Made by a program: the position numbers and the translations under genes
DNA from: a virus
Taxonomy: Duplodnaviria > Heunggongvirae > Uroviricota > Caudoviricetes
Virus record (IMG/VR): IMGVR_UViG_2713896777_000009
Strand: one strand, 5' to 3'
Length of the DNA: 15,296 nt
Part shown: piece after piece, positions 76 through 12,212 of the stretch
How the letters are laid out: every line of letters starts with the position of its first letter
Numbering within the stretch: the stretch's first letter is position 1
Notes under the pieces: generated by a model
Databases searched by the model: none
Told to the model about the DNA's origin: nothing
What the model saw: only the letters and a program-made list of their open reading frames with translations

Positions 76-523
76 TGCTGACCCCACAAACAGATTTCAC
101 GCTCAATCTCACGACGAGTCATGAGACCTTTCCATTGCTTACCGCCAGCATATGTCCAGCGACGTAGCTGATCACATGCGCCTTTGATATCGCCCTGGTT
201 TATTTTGCGAAGAAGCGTCGATGTTNNNNNNNNNNNNNNNNNNNNNNNNNNNNNNNNNNNNNNNNNNNNNNNNNNGCGACAGTGGCAAGGTCTTTATTCA
301 AGAGTGCTTTGCATTCTGCTTTGGTATACGTTTTACCGAGCATGATGTCTTTTCCTGTATGCCCGTGACATACAGTCCATACACCAACAATATCTTTGTA
401 TGGTATGTAGCTGACACCTTCCAGACCATCGTTACCACTTGGGCCAGTGATTAACACTGATGCTATAGCAATTGCTCCGCCACCAATAGCAGCAGCAACG
501 GCTTTTCGTAATGATGGAGGCAT
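72..523 (-). CDS. R: SAR endolysin (phage 21 R-like, T4-lysozyme fold) with an N-terminal signal-arrest-release helix; interrupted by the 226..275 assembly gap
   Basis: ORF track 200..523; N-terminus [27 protein letters not shown] is Gly/Ala-rich SAR-like, followed by [25 protein letters not shown]. Past the gap the frame resumes as [50 protein letters not shown], ending at the stop 72..74. ATG 523..521 overlaps the holin stop. True length is obscured by the N run. Confidence 0.88.
226..275. other. Assembly/scaffold gap (50 N) inside the endolysin gene
   Basis: Run of exactly 50 N; coding frame is consistent on both sides if roughly 96 nt are missing. Confidence 0.95.
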
Positions 524-4692: not shown

Positions 4693-5094
4693 TTATTTTA
4701 ACTCATAGATCAGACAGTCAACGATTTCTAAACCATTTACCATAGAATTAGAAACGCGAACTTTACCATCGTTGACTCTAGCAAATCCTTTTAACATTTT
4801 ATAAACAAAAGCTGAATCCCCCTTAGCCTCAATTGCTTCTAATGGTATCGGCTTATACTTTTTTGATATGCTATTTCTATTTATCTCACTGATTTTTCTA
4901 TATATTTCTGCCGGCCCACGTTCTGAGAAGTCACTGATAACTAAAATATATCTCCAAGATAGATCTGGGTAATAAAACCACATTGCAGCATCAATAGTTA
5001 AATTCTGTAACTTGAGTTTTTTTAACAAAAATTGACCTGAGAATTCCATATCTTTTGTCAACTCTCTGCCGATTACCAGTGTGCTTTTACCCAT
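4693..5094 (-). CDS. Hypothetical protein (133 aa), downstream overlapping partner of the HEPN gene; no recognisable nucleotidyltransferase motif
   Basis: ORF MGKSTLVIGRELTKDMEFSGQFLLKKLKLQNL...; ATG 5094 with GGAG RBS 7 nt upstream, lying inside the last 22 nt of the HEPN gene in another frame. AT-rich, unlike flanking phage genes. Confidence 0.6.
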   Translation of the reverse strand: MGKSTLVIGRELTKDMEFSGQFLLKKLKLQNLTIDAAMWFYYPDLSWRYILVISDFSERGPAEIYRKISEINRNSISKKYKPIPLEAIEAKGDSAFVYKMLKGFARVNDGKVRVSNSMVNGLEIVDCLIYELK

Positions 5095-5489
5095 TTCAAA
5101 ACTCCAGAATTTTGGTCACCTACAGCATCAAACAATTGTTCGGCCATAGCTTTACTTATGTTATTGTCGTATCTAAATTGCTCGCTCCAGTCTTTAACGA
5201 CCGACCAGTTAATCTCCAACGAAACATCATTTTTTGCGTCAGCAATCAAAATTTGATGTAAGTTGGCAATTTTGAGAAGTTGCGACAAATCATGAGTATA
5301 TGAATCATTTACGACTTTTTTGTTTGGAAACTCATGTTGTAAAAATGACTTGGCAATACAGGCCTTCAATGCACATTCAACTGCATACCCACAAAGATAA
5401 TATGCACCATGAAAAAAGCCATGATCAAGCAAGCATTTGGCCTCATTAAGCCTAGTGTCAGATAATGCTTCAAGGTCGTTTTTATTCAT
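5073..5489 (-). CDS. HEPN-domain protein (138 aa; Pfam HEPN PF05168-like fold, without a clear Rx4-6H motif)
   Basis: Translation ...HGFFHGAYYLCGYAVECALKACIAK...YTHDLSQLLKIANL...EQFRYDNN... has HEPN-like helices, an H-D-L motif and an RY motif. Candidate sigma70 promoter upstream on the minus strand (-10 TATAAT 5523..5528, -35 TTCCTA 5547..5552). Confidence 0.62.
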   Translation of the reverse strand: MNKNDLEALSDTRLNEAKCLLDHGFFHGAYYLCGYAVECALKACIAKSFLQHEFPNKKVVNDSYTHDLSQLLKIANLHQILIADAKNDVSLEINWSVVKDWSEQFRYDNNISKAMAEQLFDAVGDQNSGVLKWVKAHW

Positions 5490-5788: not shown

Positions 5789-6397
5789 TTACAGCCGTTC
5801 AGAACGTAAATGCGTCAATACTCGACTCCACTTATCATCCTGCCACGGCCGGAATTTTACATGTGCCGTTTCTCTGGCAAGGATTGCCTGTGCCTTATTG
5901 AGTATCCGGGGATATTCTTGTTCGATTGAAGTGAAGCGACCGGCTTCGCGGTGTTCTGCTACCTGAAGAAGCGGAGTGACGTTTTGGCAAGCGGTTAACA
6001 TTGTGTCACTTGCCCGCCATAACCAAGCAAGTGTGCAAAGTTCGTTATCAGTGAATTGTTTTGTGATTGGGGATTGTTGAATTTCTCGATCGAGAATATC
6101 CAGCACCCAGCGGCGGAATTCTTTGGCCACAGGAGTGCGGGCGAACATGGCGATCAGATGGGCGCCACGGAGGGAGAAAATGCGAGTCTTCTTACGATAA
6201 TTTCCTGAGGTCGTTGATTCGACGACCTGAGACATTCCGTCAGTAAACTCATCAATATTTTTGTTGTAGATGTCGGTTACTGCTTTGGTGCTGGCATATT
6301 TTAATGCTGCCGCCAATTCTTTGCTGGTAAACCAGATCTGGTTGTTGTGATTTATAGGAGTGAATTTTACATCGCGGAATGCGAGCTGAGTGACCAT
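5789..6397 (-). CDS. Bro-N domain protein (phage antirepressor/KilA-type N-terminal domain) with an uncharacterised C-terminal domain; start uncertain (ATG 6397 or 6532)
   Basis: Translation from MVTQLAFRDVKFTPINHNNQIWFTSKELAAALKY...RIFSLRGAHLIAMFARTPVAKEFRRWVLDIL matches the Bro-N pattern. The ORF-track start 6634 is TTG and spans a minus-strand terminator, so the long form was rejected. Confidence 0.68.
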   Translation of the reverse strand: MVTQLAFRDVKFTPINHNNQIWFTSKELAAALKYASTKAVTDIYNKNIDEFTDGMSQVVESTTSGNYRKKTRIFSLRGAHLIAMFARTPVAKEFRRWVLDILDREIQQSPITKQFTDNELCTLAWLWRASDTMLTACQNVTPLLQVAEHREAGRFTSIEQEYPRILNKAQAILARETAHVKFRPWQDDKWSRVLTHLRSERL

Positions 6398-6560
6398 AGC
6401 GATAATCTCGTTTTGAATTTGAGCTATCACCACCGACGACGCCAATCGACTGGTGGTGGACTGTGCAAGGTTGGCGTAACCGGTCAAAACGAAATCCGGC
6501 GCTTCCGAAGAAGCCCTCACACAGCCCACCATAATTTTTGTGTAGACGTGCACTGCGCAT

Positions 6561-6586
6561 AAAAAAACCGCGAACGCGGTTATGCG
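6561..6586 (-). terminator. Intrinsic terminator on the minus strand (stem ACCGCG/CGCGGT followed by U7)
   Basis: Plus strand aaaaaaACCGCGaaCGCGGTtatgcg; on the minus strand the hairpin is followed by TTTTTTT. Confidence 0.5.
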
Positions 6587-6828
6587 TCGTTTTGATGTCC
6601 GGGACGCCAATCCCGTGTGCCGATTTTGCGGCAACGCACAGAATATAGCGCCGGATAAATAATGTCGTCAACCCTTGCATATGGGGGGCGCGATGATCAC
6701 TACTACCACCATAATCGCTCCAACTGTTGCAACTACTTTAGGCTAAGACATCACGATTTCCATATCACCTTTAGCCGCCAGACAAACAGAGACTCCCTGT
6801 TCTTGGCTGCCAAAAACACCGAATGCAA

Positions 6829-7701: not shown

Positions 7702-8403
7702 TCATACACTTGCTCCTTTCAGCCCAAACTTAGCTTTGATTTCTGCGATCTTCGCCAGAGCCTGTGCACGATTTAGAGGTCTACCGCCCATAACAGGAAG
7801 TTGTTTTACTGGTTCAGGTATCGTCTCACCACGGTTAATTCGCGCTGTCATACAGGTCAGTTCATCGGCAGCCTTGCGCCGTAATTCCGCGTCAGTCAGC
7901 GCATTGGCCCGCATGTTCTGGTACAGGTTGGTAACCAACCAGTAATGCGCGTTCGATTTCCACGGATAAGACTCTGCATCCGGATACAGGCCACGCTTCC
8001 GGCAATACTCGTAAACCATATCAACCAGCTCGCTGACGTTTGGCAGCCCGGCGTTAACGGATGCTTCTTCCCGGCACCATGCAACAAACTGCCCGGGTGA
8101 TGGCAGAAATGGTCTATTCTGCCGACGGGCAACACGCATTCCGGCGCTCACCTGTTCCATCGTGGTGATCCCGTTTTCCCGGAAAGCCAGAACCCACTGG
8201 CGGCGGATTTCGTTCAGTTCGTTCTGGTCACGATTAGCCAGGCTCGCCGGGAAAGTTGCCAGTAACTGGCTGAATACACCGTTGATTATCTGCGCTACCT
8301 GCTGTACCTGCGGCTTTTCGTCGTACTGTTCCGGCATGTTGTTGGCGATCCGACGCATCTGCTCACGGTCAAAGTTAATCATCTGTGCGGCGATGTTTTT
8401 CAT
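7702..8403 (-). CDS. P: Replication protein P (lambda P-like helicase loader, 233 aa)
   Basis: Translation MKNIAAQMINFDREQMRRIANNMPEQYDEKPQVQQVAQIINGVFSQLLATFPASLANRDQNE...AKIAEIKAKFGLKGASV is near-identical to lambda P as I recall it. ATG 8403 overlaps the O stop (ATGA). Confidence 0.93.
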   Translation of the reverse strand: MKNIAAQMINFDREQMRRIANNMPEQYDEKPQVQQVAQIINGVFSQLLATFPASLANRDQNELNEIRRQWVLAFRENGITTMEQVSAGMRVARRQNRPFLPSPGQFVAWCREEASVNAGLPNVSELVDMVYEYCRKRGLYPDAESYPWKSNAHYWLVTNLYQNMRANALTDAELRRKAADELTCMTARINRGETIPEPVKQLPVMGGRPLNRAQALAKIAEIKAKFGLKGASV

Positions 8404-9413
8404 AGATCCACCCCGTAAATCCAGTCTGTGTTTGTCAGGTCGAGTTTTGGTTTGCCGACTGTCACGCCAGCCTGTTGCTTGTTCCGGTTGATTTCGAGCT
8501 GGGTCCACTTGTCGCGGAGTTTGGCCGGACTCAGCACGTTACCGGACNNNNNNNNNNNNNNNNNNNNNNNNNNNNNNNNNNNNNNNNNNNNNNNNNNGCG
8601 GAGTTTGGCCGGACTCAGCACGTTACCGGACCAGAAGTTGTCCTGGCAGGCCCAGCGGAACAGTACACACATGTCGCGGTGGTTACGTCCATCACGTTCA
8701 CGCATCAGACGGATATCGTTAGCCCACCCTGCAAAATTCGGTTTTCTGGCTGATGGCGCGATGGTCTTCACCATGTCAAACATCCACTCTGCGGCGGTCA
8801 GGTCTTCTGCTGTCCCCCACTTGCTGCCGCTCTGAATCGCAGCATCCGCTTTCACCACAGGAAGGTCGTTTTCTGGCAGGTCAGAGGATTCGCCAGAATT
8901 CTCGGACGAATAAGGTTTTATATTGTCTTTTGTTAGTTTGTCTTTTGTGTTTACCTGATTCGGGTAAGTGCCTTTACCTGATTTGGGTAAACTTTTCTTA
9001 CCTGATTCAGGTAAATTTACCTCTTTCAGGTAAACTTTATTTTTCTTACCTGATTCGGGTAATGTTGACCATTCACTGACCACATTATTAATGCCGATAT
9101 TCCGCCCGCTCTGAATAAAAATCCCACGCTTTACCAGAACACTTTTTGCAGCAGAACACTTGTGCGGCAATATCCCGGTCAACTCGGAAAGTTGCTCGTT
9201 GCTCACCCAGTCCAGTTTTTTATTAAAGCCATATGTTTTGCGCATGACAGCCAGGAAGACCAGAAGCTGGTGCTGTGTTAATCCGGCCAGCATTACAGCT
9301 TCCAGCAACTCATTTGCAATGCGCGTATAACCATCATCGAGATCTGCCACGCGCGGCTCCTTTTGTGCCGCATCCGGCACTGGAAAATTGAATATCTCAG
9401 CAGTGTTTGCCAT
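8400..9413 (-). CDS. O: Replication initiator O (lambda O family); N-terminal origin-binding domain differs from lambda, C-terminal P-interaction domain is lambda-like; interrupted by the 8548..8597 gap
   Basis: Translation MANTAEIFNFPVP...VADLDDGY...TYPNQVNTKDKLTKDNIKPYSSENSGESSD...FWSGNVLSPAKLRDKWTQLEINRNKQQAGV...DLTNTDWIYGVDL; ATG 9413 with GGAGG RBS. Iterons lie inside the gene. Confidence 0.9.
   Translation of the reverse strand: MANTAEIFNFPVPDAAQKEPRVADLDDGYTRIANELLEAVMLAGLTQHQLLVFLAVMRKTYGFNKKLDWVSNEQLSELTGILPHKCSAAKSVLVKRGIFIQSGRNIGINNVVSEWSTLPESGKKNKVYLKEVNLPESGKKSLPKSGKGTYPNQVNTKDKLTKDNIKPYSSENSGESSDLPENDLPVVKADAAIQSGSKWGTAEDLTAAEWMFDMVKTIAPSARKPNFAGWANDIRLMRERDGRNHRDMCVLFRWACQDNFWSGNVLSPAKLRXXXXXXXXXXXXXXXXXSGNVLSPAKLRDKWTQLEINRNKQQAGVTVGKPKLDLTNTDWIYGVDL
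8548..8597. other. Assembly/scaffold gap (50 N) flanked by an identical 34-bp sequence on both sides
   Basis: gcggagtttggccggactcagcacgttaccggac occurs at 8514..8547 and again at 8598..8631, indicating overlapping contig ends joined with N. Confidence 0.9.
8896..9064. promoter_or_regulatory. Replication origin within O: five iteron-like palindromic repeats (TTACCTGATTCGGGTAA core) adjacent to an AT-rich stretch
   Basis: Repeats at about 8950, 8974, 8998, 9017 and 9046, each about 19 bp with TTACC...GGTAA symmetry; AT-rich tract 8896..8949 lies on the gene-downstream side, as in lambda ori. Confidence 0.8.
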
Positions 9414-9499: not shown

Positions 9500-10039
9500 T
9501 CATATCGCCCCCAGCATGGTAGTAACCATCGCCATCAATGGACCAGCCAGCTCTGGGTCCACACGAAACATCGACACAATACCTTCACTAATTTCCTTCA
9601 GTTTCTGGTGGCGTGGTGCGTTGAGAATGACAGCCTGTTTTGCCTCACTGAGTTCCTTTTCCATTTCAGCCAACCTAGCCATGAAGCTATCCTGCTCAAC
9701 CAGGTAACCGCGATATTCCAGCGGTAGTACCGCCAGAATTGCCGGGGTCAGTTCACGCACGTTATTTCGGTATTTTTCAGAATCGAATTTGTTATCGAGG
9801 AAGCGGAACAGCTTCTGGCGTGTACGGCTGACATCATCAGGGAAATCGATGGTGCCGCCGCCCTGCTCCCGATACTCATTCACAATGAGTGTGGCAACGA
9901 CATCCTGATTATCTACAGCCGACCAGGCGCGGACGGCATCACGGATTTTTTCGTGGCCTGGCACCTGTTTTGTTTGAGAACGATTTATCACCGCAGTCGG
10001 GCTAAATCCGCTAGTCTGTTGGTATGGAAGTGGTTGCAT
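9500..10039 (-). CDS. Hypothetical early protein (179 aa) in the cII position between cro and O; possibly a YdaT/CII-like regulator (family assignment unverified)
   Basis: ORF MQPLPYQQTSGFSPTAVINRSQTKQVPGHEKIRDAVRAWSAVDNQDVVATLIVNEYREQ...; strong RBS AAGGAG 6 nt before ATG 10039. Confidence 0.6.
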   Translation of the reverse strand: MQPLPYQQTSGFSPTAVINRSQTKQVPGHEKIRDAVRAWSAVDNQDVVATLIVNEYREQGGGTIDFPDDVSRTRQKLFRFLDNKFDSEKYRNNVRELTPAILAVLPLEYRGYLVEQDSFMARLAEMEKELSEAKQAVILNAPRHQKLKEISEGIVSMFRVDPELAGPLMAMVTTMLGAI

Positions 10040-10108: not shown

Positions 10109-10339
10109 TTAAGCTGCGTTCTTTTCGGTGTGTGGAAACAACTTCGGAAGATCCGGGCGAATCTGGTATGCCTTCACTACTCCACCAGTAGCCGTAACAA
10201 TGCTGCCGACATGTTCAGGGGATACCTTTGCTTTGTTGTGAAGCCACTTATAGACGGCCTGCTGTGAAACTTCGCAGGCAGCGCCCAGTTTCTTTTGTGA
10301 ACCAACGATATTGATCGCTGTTTTGATAGCTGGGTTCAT
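10109..10339 (-). CDS. cro: Cro-like transcriptional repressor (76 aa, HTH)
   Basis: Translation MNPAIKTAINIVGSQKKLGAACEVSQQAVYKWLHNKAKVSPEHV...; divergent from cI across an operator-bearing intergenic region; RBS GGAGG 5 nt before ATG 10339. Confidence 0.72.
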   Translation of the reverse strand: MNPAIKTAINIVGSQKKLGAACEVSQQAVYKWLHNKAKVSPEHVGSIVTATGGVVKAYQIRPDLPKLFPHTEKNAA

Positions 10340-10443
10340 AACAACCTCCGTGGTTAATTTGAATCAAGATTAAAACTATGGTTGTTTTTAGTCAACAACC
10401 ATTTTCGTTTGATGGAATAAAACCTTGGTTGTACATTTGGACT
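10340..10443. promoter_or_regulatory. Immunity-region right operator/promoter region (OR with divergent pR and pRM)
   Basis: pR on the minus strand: -35 TTGACT (10390..10395), 17-bp spacer, -10 TTAATC (10368..10373). pRM on the plus strand: -35 TTGATG (10409..10414), 17-bp spacer, -10 TACATT (10432..10437), 6 nt before the cI ATG. Repeated half-sites AACAACC/GGTTGTT, including the palindrome ATGGTTGTT-N7-AACAACCAT. Confidence 0.6.
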
Positions 10444-11133
10444 ATGAAAACAACACTCTCAGAAAGACTTAAAGAAGCCAGATTAGCGCGAGGCCTTACA
10501 CAAAAGGCGCTTGGGGATTTGGTCGGGGTTAGCCAGGCTGCTATTCAGAAAATCGAAACAGGGAAAGCTAATCAAACAACTAAAATCGTGGAGATCGCGA
10601 ACGCTTTGGGTGTGCGCGCAGAATGGTTATCTTCTGGCGTTGGAAATATGTCAGACAGTACAGTGCAACCAATACAATCAACTGTCAGCCATTCCAAATA
10701 CTTCAAGATTGACGTTCTTGATATAGAAGTCAGTGCTGGGCCGGGAGTCATCAACCGTGAGTTTGTAGAAGTTCTACGCTCGGTTGAGTACTCGTTTGAC
10801 GATGCTCGTCACATGTTCGATGGTAGGAAGGCAGAAAATATCCGCATCATTAACGTGCGTGGTGACAGCATGTCAGGAACGATCGAACCAGGTGATCTGC
10901 TGTTCGTTGATATCACGGTTAAATCTTTCGACGGTGATGGTATCTATGCATTTCTGTACGACGACACCGCCCATGTAAAGCGCCTGCAAATGATGAAGGA
11001 TAAACTGCTGGTTATCTCTGATAACAAGAGCTACTCACCGTGGGACCCTATCGAGAAAGACGAGATGAACCGGGTATTCATATTCGGTAAGGTTATTGGG
11101 AGCATGCCGCAGACGTACAGAAAACACGGATAA
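10444..11133 (+). CDS. cI: CI-type prophage repressor (HTH_XRE N-terminal domain, LexA-like S24 autopeptidase C-terminal domain)
   Basis: Translation MKTTLSERLKEARLARGLTQKALGDLVGVSQAAIQKIETGK..., Ala-Gly cleavage site (EVSAGPG), catalytic GDSM serine and downstream VKRL lysine. Near-leaderless start as for lambda pRM-cI. Confidence 0.9.
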   Translation: MKTTLSERLKEARLARGLTQKALGDLVGVSQAAIQKIETGKANQTTKIVEIANALGVRAEWLSSGVGNMSDSTVQPIQSTVSHSKYFKIDVLDIEVSAGPGVINREFVEVLRSVEYSFDDARHMFDGRKAENIRIINVRGDSMSGTIEPGDLLFVDITVKSFDGDGIYAFLYDDTAHVKRLQMMKDKLLVISDNKSYSPWDPIEKDEMNRVFIFGKVIGSMPQTYRKHG

Positions 11134-11214
11134 TCAGCCGCGTGTTGATGAGGCTTTTGGGTAATACGCTGAAGAAAATACCTTATAAAAAATAACATTA
11201 CGGGAAAGGCAAAA

Positions 11215-11478
11215 ATGAGTAATAAAACACTTGTTAAAAAATCAAATAACTGTGTCGATGCATACGCCGACGCGTTTGGCTACTCTTCGTTTGGTGACGG
11301 CTCTCAGCGCCTAGGTTCAATTTCTTTTTTTCATAATGTAACTGAATGGCCTGTTGATGAAAGTGACGATGTTGAGAACATAAAGTACAACATTGCAACC
11401 ATTAGAATGCCCGAAGAATTGATGCTTAAATTGGCTGACTTCATTCGCGACCAGCATGACAAAGCTAAAACAAACTAA
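11215..11478 (+). CDS. Hypothetical acidic protein (87 aa) immediately downstream of cI (rex position)
   Basis: ORF MSNKTLVKKSNNCVDAYADAFGYSSFGDGSQRLGS...; RBS GGAAAGG before the ATG; AT-rich relative to cI. No family recognised. Confidence 0.55.
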   Translation: MSNKTLVKKSNNCVDAYADAFGYSSFGDGSQRLGSISFFHNVTEWPVDESDDVENIKYNIATIRMPEELMLKLADFIRDQHDKAKTN

Positions 11479-11490
11479 TCGTAATTAATT

Positions 11491-11934
11491 ATGAAACACG
11501 ATTATTACGAAGCTCCAAACCTAAATGATAAAATTGCAAAGGCGGCAGAATCATTTTGTTTGCACTCCAGTGCGTCTTCCCAGCTAGCAGGTATATCTGG
11601 AAAAAGATGGGACATGCTACAATCAAGTGGTAGCAGTGGGTCTGGGAGTGATAACATGCCTGAAAAAGTTGCAAAACTGGAGTCCGATGTTGCTCATATC
11701 AAACGAGACGTTGATGAACTTAAAACAGACGTTAAAGCTATCGACAAAAATATGATAACTATTCTTGCACGTCTGGACTCTATAAAAGAATCCTTAACAA
11801 ACAAGCCATCAAGTGATGCTGTCGATAGAAAGATTTCAGACGCAAAGCTTGCGGTATTGCTTGGTGTTCCAGCAATCATCGCTGCAGGAACAGGACTTTA
11901 TAAGCTATCAATGTACTTTTTCTTTAGTGCTTAA
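11491..11934 (+). CDS. Hypothetical protein with Gly/Ser linker, coiled-coil segment and C-terminal transmembrane helix (147 aa; alternative start at 11656 gives a 92-aa XhlA-like membrane protein)
   Basis: ORF ...SSGSSGSGSDNMPEKVAKLESDVAHIKRDVDELKTDVKAIDKNMITILARLDSIKESL...LAVLLGVPAIIAAGTGLY...; the ATG at 11656 has a GGGAG RBS while the ATG at 11491 has none obvious. Confidence 0.55.
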   Translation: MKHDYYEAPNLNDKIAKAAESFCLHSSASSQLAGISGKRWDMLQSSGSSGSGSDNMPEKVAKLESDVAHIKRDVDELKTDVKAIDKNMITILARLDSIKESLTNKPSSDAVDRKISDAKLAVLLGVPAIIAAGTGLYKLSMYFFFSA

Positions 11935-12011
11935 GAAAATGCTCGCACCCTTGCATTAGGTAAAGCGATTTTTCATTCCCCATTACCCTCGCTCTTAACC
12001 AATCATCTAAA

Positions 12012-12039
12012 CCCGGCCACCGTGCCGGGTTTTCTTTTG
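12012..12039 (+). terminator. Rho-independent terminator ending the cI/rex-position operon (CCCGGC-caccgt-GCCGGG followed by TTTTCTTTT)
   Basis: GC-rich stem-loop followed by a T-tract on the plus strand; a boxA-like CGCTCTTAA lies about 20 nt upstream at 11990. Confidence 0.7.
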
Positions 12040-12164
12040 CCCTCCCCTCATCATACACCGTTCAAAAAAACCACCACGACCTCGCTTCAGTTATCGCTAT
12101 GCGATGCAAGTCACAAAATAAATCCATCTTAAATACAACCAGTTATATCTAAAACAACCAACAA

Positions 12165-12207
12165 AACAACTTTTGTTGTTGACGATAAAACAACTATAGT
12201 TTTAAAT
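12165..12207 (+). promoter_or_regulatory. pL-like early-left promoter with overlapping operator (OL)
   Basis: TTGACG-ataaaacaactatagtt-TTAAAT is nearly identical in architecture to pR (TTGACT-aaaaacaaccatagttt-TAATC). Palindrome AACAAC-TTTT-GTTGTT overlaps the -35, and further AACAACC half-sites lie upstream at 12150..12170. Confidence 0.5.
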
Positions 12208-12212
12208 GAGTT

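Follow-up and report, generated by a model that had tools for sequence, protein, structure and literature searches.

Two small open reading frames (ORFs) that lie directly behind the cI repressor gene of a lambdoid prophage, co-oriented with it, very probably form an accessory cassette expressed in the lysogen, and the sequence evidence inclines us, with some reserve, to see in them a phage-exclusion system. The prophage was analysed as a stretch of 15,296 nucleotides (the window; IMG/VR record IMGVR_UViG_2713896777_000009), which is 100% identical to the lambdoid prophage at tRNA-Arg (intD site, DLP12-like) of Escherichia coli O26:H11 str. 11368; many genomes of O26 and O103 Shiga toxin-producing E. 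coli (STEC) also hold a prophage 100% identical to the window. The two genes, ORF-A and ORF-B (A and B hereafter), are annotated in strain 11368 as WP_000066829 and WP_012565042, respectively. Exclusion is favoured because the pair occupies a hotspot, alternates there with candidate defence systems, is found in two repressor contexts and in the slots of both rexAB and sieA, and displays an arms-race-like swapping of modules.

The locus runs from the replication genes through a YdaT-like gene, a cro-like gene, oR/pRM, cI, A, B, a terminator and oL/pL to kil, gam, bet and exo (Table 1). This is the lambda order cro-oR-cI-rexA-rexB-tImm-oL/pL-N in the opposite orientation, and the succession cI, 81 nt, A, 12 nt, B, terminator, pL confirms the location that a preliminary description of the sequence had assigned to the pair, namely the rex position in the orientation of cI. 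The start of cI at 10444 agrees with that of the annotated protein, WP_000858975.1. A plus-strand scan found no terminator ahead of B, and in particular none in the cI-A spacer, whose length is 79-82 nt in other lambdoid carriers; an internal promoter was also considered there, and a scan at consensus level found none. The strong terminator that the same description had placed after the pair is indeed present: a stem of 9 bp, 6 of them G-C pairs, occupies 12009..12032 and leads into a T-run that extends to 12039. The folding z-score is -3.4, and the site is the best of the 9 terminator-like sites found by the scan (2.7 expected). As judged from position, A and B would thus be transcribed together with cI in this prophage. 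The oL/pL region beyond the terminator is a putative assignment, read by eye (the consensus scan did not report it owing to its -10 rule) and in agreement with the location of kil, gam, bet and exo on the + strand. The genes had also been called AT-rich, which is true though modest: the G+C fractions of A (0.39) and B (0.40) lie below those of cI (0.46), the window as a whole (0.456) and the recombination genes (about 0.52). The composition of the pair marks it as foreign, though only mildly.

Table 1. Features of the immunity region and of the A-B pair (positions in the window; aa, amino acids; nt, nucleotides).
Feature	Position	Strand	Remarks
YdaT-like gene	9500..10039	-	
cro-like gene	10109..10339	-	divergent from cI
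Operator-like palindrome	10378..10402		separates the cro-like gene and cI
cI-type repressor (HTH_3 + Peptidase_S24)	10444..11133	+	Pfam S24 E 1.5e-18, HTH_3 E 6.5e-13
cI-A spacer	11134..11214	+	81 nt; carries the ORF-A ribosome-binding site GGAAAGG
ORF-A	11215..11478	+	87 aa
ORF-B, long form	11491..11934	+	147 aa
B N-terminal region (residues 1-55, type N1)	11491..11655	+	predicted helix 11-26, then low-complexity Gly/Ser linker
Internal Shine-Dalgarno GGGAG (11644..11648) and ATG (11656..11658) inside B	11644..11658	+	7-nt spacing
Coiled-coil segment (residues 56-103)	11656..11799	+	AlphaFold helix 56-103; motif (R/K)-(V/I/L)-A-x-L-E-x-(D/E)-V
C-terminal transmembrane helix (residues ~118-140)	11842..11910	+	tail type T1: AKLAVLLGVPAIIA.GTG.YK; near-invariant in T1 relatives
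Intrinsic terminator	12009..12039	+	predicted 3' end of cI-A-B; counterpart of lambda tImm
Putative oL/pL region	12160..12210	+	TTGACG 12179..12184, 17 nt, TTAAAT 12202..12207; operator-like CAACA/TGTTG repeats; reads away from the cassette

The site behind cI does not always hold A and B. Among 5426 complete E. coli genomes, 1520 contain the cI gene (at 80% coverage or more) and 198 the A-B pair. Behind an identical cI protein (WP_000858975.1), the slot is empty in two chromosomes (L094 and L096), and elsewhere it is filled either by a HipA-like kinase and a DUF3037 protein (PADLOC PDC-M66, E 6e-15 and 4e-16) or by a 353-aa protein and an ASCH protein (PADLOC PDC-M11, E 3e-133 and 7e-52). Because the same terminator directly follows cI in the empty-slot prophages, it belongs to the prophage backbone and not to the cassette. 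PDC-M11 and PDC-M66 share with A-B this exact slot and the standing of candidates, whereas their proteins are unrelated to A and B. The interval between cI and N is known as a hotspot of mosaicism in which rexAB and bstA reside, and few promoters are more active in lysogens than that of the repressor (PMC8585504). By these comparisons, the A-B pair is one cargo of a variable slot that appears to act as a defence hotspot. The slots of four E. coli chromosomes (L094-L097, equivalent to window positions 11134..12008) constitute a natural series for comparing cargoes at a single hotspot.

The strongest available argument for expression in the lysogen comes from a second repressor. The same A1/B pair (A1 being the type to which A of the window belongs; A 94-95% identical) is found in the immI region of P22-like phages (Salmonella phage UPF_BP1 and loci L010-14, L037 and L070), where it directly follows mnt, is divergent from arc-ant and lies in the gene 16-gene 9 interval that holds sieA in P22. 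In L010 mnt and A share the sequence ATGA, in which the stop codon of the former overlaps the start codon of the latter; this overlap takes the place of the spacer of the lambdoid carriers, and A and B would therefore be translationally coupled to mnt. The cI repressor, of the helix-turn-helix (HTH)-S24 type, and the ribbon-helix-helix repressor Mnt are unrelated, and what they share is expression in the lysogen. At the gene 16-gene 9 location, sieA occurs in only about a third of P22-like phages (PMC10883804), and the L010 and L011 prophages have no sieA between these genes. They do carry other morons beside the pair: a 161-aa lipoprotein gene in L010 (7776-8261; signal peptide ...LLAGC) and, in L011, a gene (7774-8667) for a 297-aa acidic protein with a C-terminal transmembrane helix. 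The 161-aa gene was considered as a possible SieA and rejected, since it encodes a lipoprotein.

Substitution patterns indicate that A and B are genuine genes under purifying selection. In pairwise comparisons with diverged copies, the ratio of nonsynonymous to synonymous substitution rates (dN/dS) is 0.05-0.16 for A, 0.09-0.13 for residues 56-147 of B and 0.16-0.59 for residues 1-55 of B. The 87-aa acidic protein previously described is borne out (pI 4.96; 14 acidic versus 10 basic residues); no hydrophobic segment was found in it, and it is predicted to be cytoplasmic and to be the variable partner component of the pair. It matches phrog_4231 (a family of unknown function) over residues 1-87 with an E-value of 7e-54, and an exhaustive hidden Markov model search with its profile reached 8 clusters only, with no remote relative that could give it a name. 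In an E. coli protein of 134 aa (P0005), residues 1-56 of A are joined in frame to a B tail of type T2 (see below for the tail types), a fusion apparently generated by a deletion between short DVENIK-encoding repeats present in A and in B of the UPF_BP1 type.

The organization of B also proved to be as first described, with a Gly/Ser linker, a coiled coil and a single C-terminal transmembrane helix. The linker (SSGSSGSGSD) covers residues 46-55 and is followed by a heptad repeat that runs without a break from residue 60 to 102 (a/d positions V L V I V L V I M I L I L). The sole hydrophobic segment spans residues ~118-140 (19-residue Kyte-Doolittle mean 1.8), and AlphaFold places helices at residues 56-103 and 108-146. 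B is therefore predicted to be a tail-anchored inner-membrane protein with its N-terminus inside. It matches phrog_3556 (unknown function; E 1.5e-58, profile positions 128-267 of 276). The coil motif listed in Table 1 is the only motif conserved family-wide, with L8, E9 and V12 invariant in the alignment designated A6, and the coils of relatives differ by whole-heptad (7-aa) insertions or deletions. Remote-homology and structure searches, which the preliminary description had suggested, were run: sequence searches of solved structures gave no hit for A and, for B, coiled coils of a generic and mostly trimeric kind only.

We scanned IMG/VR with the B alignment and analysed the ORFs around the hits, which yielded 45 unique pairs. 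In each of the 45, a small gene stands ahead of the B-like gene, at a distance of -34 to +29 nt. The pair follows a cI/HTH repressor that is divergent from cro, the YdaT-like gene and the replication genes in 28 cases and Mnt in 5, i.e. 33 of 45 in total (the HTH assignment was confirmed with Pfam for three representatives). At least nine types of partner A, unrelated or barely related to one another, can be distinguished: A1, A2 and A9 are about 90 aa long, A3-A6 about 140-160 aa, and A7 is Cys-rich. Homology between A1 and A2 was tried by hhalign and not accepted (the alignment is collinear over 77 columns, but P = 0.05 and the probability is 1%), and hhalign found nothing between A1 and the large A3-A6 group. 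The A types map one-to-one onto the N-terminal types of B, and the tails, of which there are at least four types, are shuffled: A1 occurs with T1, T2 and T3, A2 with T1, T2 and T4, and A4 with T1 and T3. The joint between the two parts of B consists of the Gly-rich linker and the first heptads. The simplest reading is that A and the N-terminus of B, which would bind each other, make up an input module, and that the coil and the membrane anchor make up an output module. Judged from this survey, the pair belongs to a large family of two-gene modules that is widespread in the Enterobacterales.

Distant relatives of the pair occur in other phages and prophages. One such pair replaces rexA-rexB between a lambda-type cI and Timm in HK544, a phage of lambda immunity, and others lie in the Stx1 (Shiga toxin 1) prophage of E. 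coli O157:H7, for which a proteomic study of uninduced cultures detected both proteins. The replacement of rexAB by two hypothetical genes has been seen by others (HK544 immunity-region record; Sakai VT1 annotation); as far as our searches show, what is new is the view of the family as a whole, its division into input and output modules, its linkage to mnt and the conservation of the internal start described below. The presence of these morons in prophages of pathogens (O26, O103, the O157 Stx1 phage) might suggest lysogenic-conversion genes that have nothing to do with phages and provide the host with a membrane or stress-fitness factor, in the manner of bor/iss, lom or YqjD/ElaB; iss/bor and an ompC-like porin are also present in the prophage of the window, and B is tail-anchored like YqjD. 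We nevertheless regard such a role as improbable: fast swapping of input and output modules and exclusive linkage to immunity regions across many genera typify genes of phage-phage conflict, and neither protein resembles any virulence or stress family.

Two forms of B are probably produced. The ATG at 11656, which had been noted as an alternative start, is more than an annotation ambiguity, since an internal start is kept across the whole family: a start codon is present at the homologous position, just after the Gly-rich linker, in 30 of 30 unique sequence contexts (ATG throughout, except for GTG in one lineage), and 6-8 nt upstream of it the linker codons themselves provide a Shine-Dalgarno sequence (GGAGG, GGGAG or GGGGG). 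The median energy of pairing with the anti-Shine-Dalgarno sequence is -9.4 kcal/mol for the internal start (range -6.3 to -12.1), compared with -4.2 for the long-form start and -3.6 for the start of A. When synonymous codons were resampled, none of 2000 trials reached the observed strength (observed mean -9.65, resampled -7.76 +/- 0.36), a result that is not a strict probability because the 30 contexts are phylogenetically related. The predicted short isoform has 92 aa (11656..11934) and consists of the coil and the transmembrane helix only. By contrast, the long form starts without a Shine-Dalgarno sequence 12 nt after the A stop codon, and its translation is therefore probably coupled to that of A.

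The much better Shine-Dalgarno sequence of the internal start, together with several database annotations that call just a 90-93-aa form, could be taken to mean that B is solely a 92-aa XhlA-like protein made from 11656, the upstream 55 codons, and perhaps ORF-A, being a non-functional leader. We consider this very improbable. The long frame is real: it stays open for 37-86 codons upstream of the internal start in every lineage, it co-varies with A, its dN/dS is below 1, and in the O157 relative a 19.8-kDa long form of B has been identified by mass spectrometry. With a real long frame and an internal start signal, B is therefore predicted in two forms, one coupled to A and the other, of 92 aa, initiated at the internal Shine-Dalgarno-ATG.

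The short isoform brings B close to XhlA of Bacillus phages, and the preliminary description had called the protein XhlA-like if started at 11656. This is right as regards architecture: an ATG with a Shine-Dalgarno sequence does exist, and the short form (~82-100 aa across relatives) has the layout of XhlA and SPP1 gp24.1, i.e. about 90 aa with an N-terminal coiled coil and one C-terminal transmembrane helix. The XhlA score, however, is below threshold. Pfam XhlA (PF10779) aligns with B of the window over the coil only (12.1 bits, E 0.23, for a gathering threshold of 34.7 bits), and even the T3-tail relatives, which align with the whole profile and give the best score of the family, reach only 24.9 bits (E 2.4e-5). 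B of the window also matches the XhlA-type 'hemolysin' phrog_1193 (E 1.4e-4), and one UniRef cluster has been automatically named 'Hemolysin XhlA'. The link is best described as a shared architecture with possible remote homology, without membership of the family. XhlA and SPP1 gp24.1 are holin-like proteins with a C-terminal transmembrane helix that are harmless alone and kill when co-produced with a two-transmembrane holin, and SPP1 gp24.1 has a dual start (PMC6316719), as predicted here for B from its sequence. Unlike XhlA, B has an additional N-terminal input region and a dedicated partner gene, is found in Gram-negative hosts, and lies with A in the immunity region, with no XhlB-type holin or endolysin adjacent; about 10 kb separate the pair from the lysis genes (essD, rrrD and rzpD). 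In one relative (L042:1022-1761), the gene upstream of B is itself XhlA-like (99 aa, coil and C-terminal transmembrane helix), so that two genes for tail-anchored coiled-coil proteins stand in tandem with no soluble partner.

These resemblances raise the question of whether the pair serves the prophage itself, as a toxin-antitoxin-like or lysis-timing module in which the short form of B would be a holin-like toxin or accessory and the long form and/or A the antiholin or antitoxin, acting in addiction or in the tuning of lysis after induction. A dual start is the classic holin/antiholin device (lambda S105/S107; SPP1 gp24.1), and the tight coupling of the genes, the order of an acidic first and a membrane second product, the co-varying interfaces and the sub-threshold similarity to XhlA would all fit. 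Such a role is nonetheless rather unlikely, for the late region of the prophage already holds a complete lysis cassette (essD, rrrD, rzpD), the pair is optional, being absent from most prophages with the same cI (198 versus 1520 genomes), and it alternates with candidate defence systems and is linked to lysogenic repressors instead of late promoters.

We then compared the pair with the exclusion systems known from related positions. As the preliminary description had supposed, neither protein belongs to a recognised rex or sie family: Pfam, NCBIfam and PADLOC gave no match, returning only coiled-coil noise for B and nothing for A. The likeness to lambda RexA/RexB is one of organization: both are two-gene cassettes located between cI and tImm and co-oriented with cI, with a soluble first and a membrane second product, RexAB being transcribed from pRM and the same being deduced here from position. 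RexA has 279 aa and RexB is a 144-aa protein with four transmembrane helices; A, with 87 aa, and B, with one C-terminal helix, the only hydrophobic segment, and a coiled coil, show no sequence similarity to them. The mechanism of RexAB is itself still unclear after 60 years. RexB is expressed independently of RexA via pLit (HK544 record), and the predicted internal start of B would be analogous. BstA of phage BTP1 likewise lies downstream of the prophage repressor, a position that is conserved, apparently shares its promoter and has its own Rho-independent terminator (PMC8585504). Unlike A and B, to which it has no similarity, it is a single large DNA-associated protein that is not in the membrane and has a DNA-encoded self-immunity element (aba).

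Comparison with P22 SieA bears on the main rival to a Rex-like mechanism, namely superinfection exclusion at the entry step, in which B in the inner membrane would block DNA delivery (as do P22 SieA, HK97 gp15 and T4 Imm), A would be a cytoplasmic cofactor or specificity factor, and the cell would survive. The P22-like pairs do occupy the sieA interval between genes 16 and 9, next to mnt (the window itself is lambdoid), in carriers without sieA, and B is predicted to be an inner-membrane protein, which prophage-expressed SieA is. SieA is a single 162-aa protein with 3-4 transmembrane helices that blocks DNA injection and whose conserved motif, FxRYPxEAxxFNK, is likewise cytoplasmic (PMC10883804). 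However, the pair comprises two genes instead of one and neither product resembles SieA, the 3-4 helices and the FxRYPxEAxxFNK motif being absent from the sequences of A and B. Moreover, nearly all of B is predicted to be cytoplasmic, with fewer than 10 residues beyond the transmembrane helix, and a diversifying soluble partner combined with an exchangeable N-terminal input domain suits intracellular sensing better than the blocking of a channel. We therefore hold an entry block to be unlikely, while ranking it first among the alternatives.

Within exclusion, a Rex-like abortive mechanism is our best guess, and a tentative one, because B has a holin-like tail and is predicted to lie almost wholly on the cytoplasmic side, where the variable parts would also be. 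The overall explanation, to which we give about even chances, is that of a moron cassette that has entered a lambdoid prophage between its repressor gene and its immunity terminator, is made in the lysogen and protects it by means of a Rex-like sensor and a membrane effector. A and B would be transcribed with cI from pRM/pRE and hence be present in lysogens. A and the N-terminus of B would sense or gate a superinfecting phage, whereupon the infection would be aborted through damage to, or depolarisation of, the inner membrane by oligomerised B tails; the ratio of long to short B may set the threshold or confer self-immunity on the prophage. The analysis establishes that the genes are real, where they lie, their modularity, the internal start signal and the presence of distantly related proteins in lysogens, whereas co-transcription, binding of A to B, topology, anti-phage activity and the membrane lesion are inferred. 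A further proposal, possible and no firmer than the Rex-like guess, is that the pair founds a new and widespread class of Rex-like abortive-infection systems in prophages of the Enterobacterales (including the O157:H7 Stx1 phage and HK544), characterized by a two-start holin-like B with an A-coupled long form and a pore-forming or threshold-setting short form, and by sensors and tails that are swapped at the coiled-coil joint.

Several observations weigh against this explanation. Linkage to a repressor indicates lysogenic expression and not what a protein does, and about a quarter of the pairs have no adjacent repressor, some being near DUF6246 and tail genes in Pantoea-type prophages. The expressed O157 relative is remote: its B is only 29% identical to that of the window, over the C-terminal module only, and its A has no detectable pairwise similarity to A of the window. 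The similarity to XhlA is sub-threshold and, for B of the window, limited to the coil (E 0.23); canonical XhlA requires a two-transmembrane holin partner, and none is present beside the pair. No Pfam family is matched by any A or B type, and a search of PADLOC-DB 2.0 with A and B of the window, seven other A types and three other B types gave only coiled-coil noise (E >= 0.001). Finally, neither a phenotype nor a functional study came to light for any member of the family in the literature searched by accession, locus tag, PHROG identifier and keyword, a search that did not cover Degnan et al. 2007, the source of the HK544 immunity-region record.

If the pair is an exclusion system, it would be a compact and experimentally tractable analogue of RexAB, and its natural input/output modularity would permit direct tests of how the sensing of a competitor leads to membrane damage. 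The family being present in clinically important prophages (O26 and O103 STEC, O157:H7 Stx1 phage), it could shape the infection of these strains by phages, therapeutic ones included, and the spread of Stx phages. The conserved in-frame Shine-Dalgarno sequence formed by glycine codons is, for its part, a clear example of a linker doubling as a translation signal.

Other features of the window were recorded in passing. The gene in the cII position (9500..10039, - strand) is annotated as a 'toxin YdaT domain-containing protein' of 179 aa, and a gene of similar size (~178-187 aa) occupies the same position in most other prophages with repressor-linked pairs. Two masked runs (100 N in total, at ~230..290 and ~8560..8610) break the lysozyme and the replication (O-like) genes, whose ORFs show X runs there. 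In the nin region, a HEPN-domain gene (5073..5489, -) overlaps the gene of a 133-aa partner (4693..5094, -), and the two could be a HEPN/MNT-type toxin-antitoxin or defence module. An Rfam scan found no RNA element in or around the A-B pair; at 6449..6633 (-) it identified a C4 antisense RNA (RF01695, 82.5 bits) and isrK (RF01394, 64 bits), directly upstream of and overlapping the start of an ORF (5789..6634, -) annotated with a P22AR C-terminal (antirepressor) domain. C4 and the antirepressor gene make up a secondary immunity module of the P1/P7 c4-ant style, located in the nin region of a lambdoid prophage.

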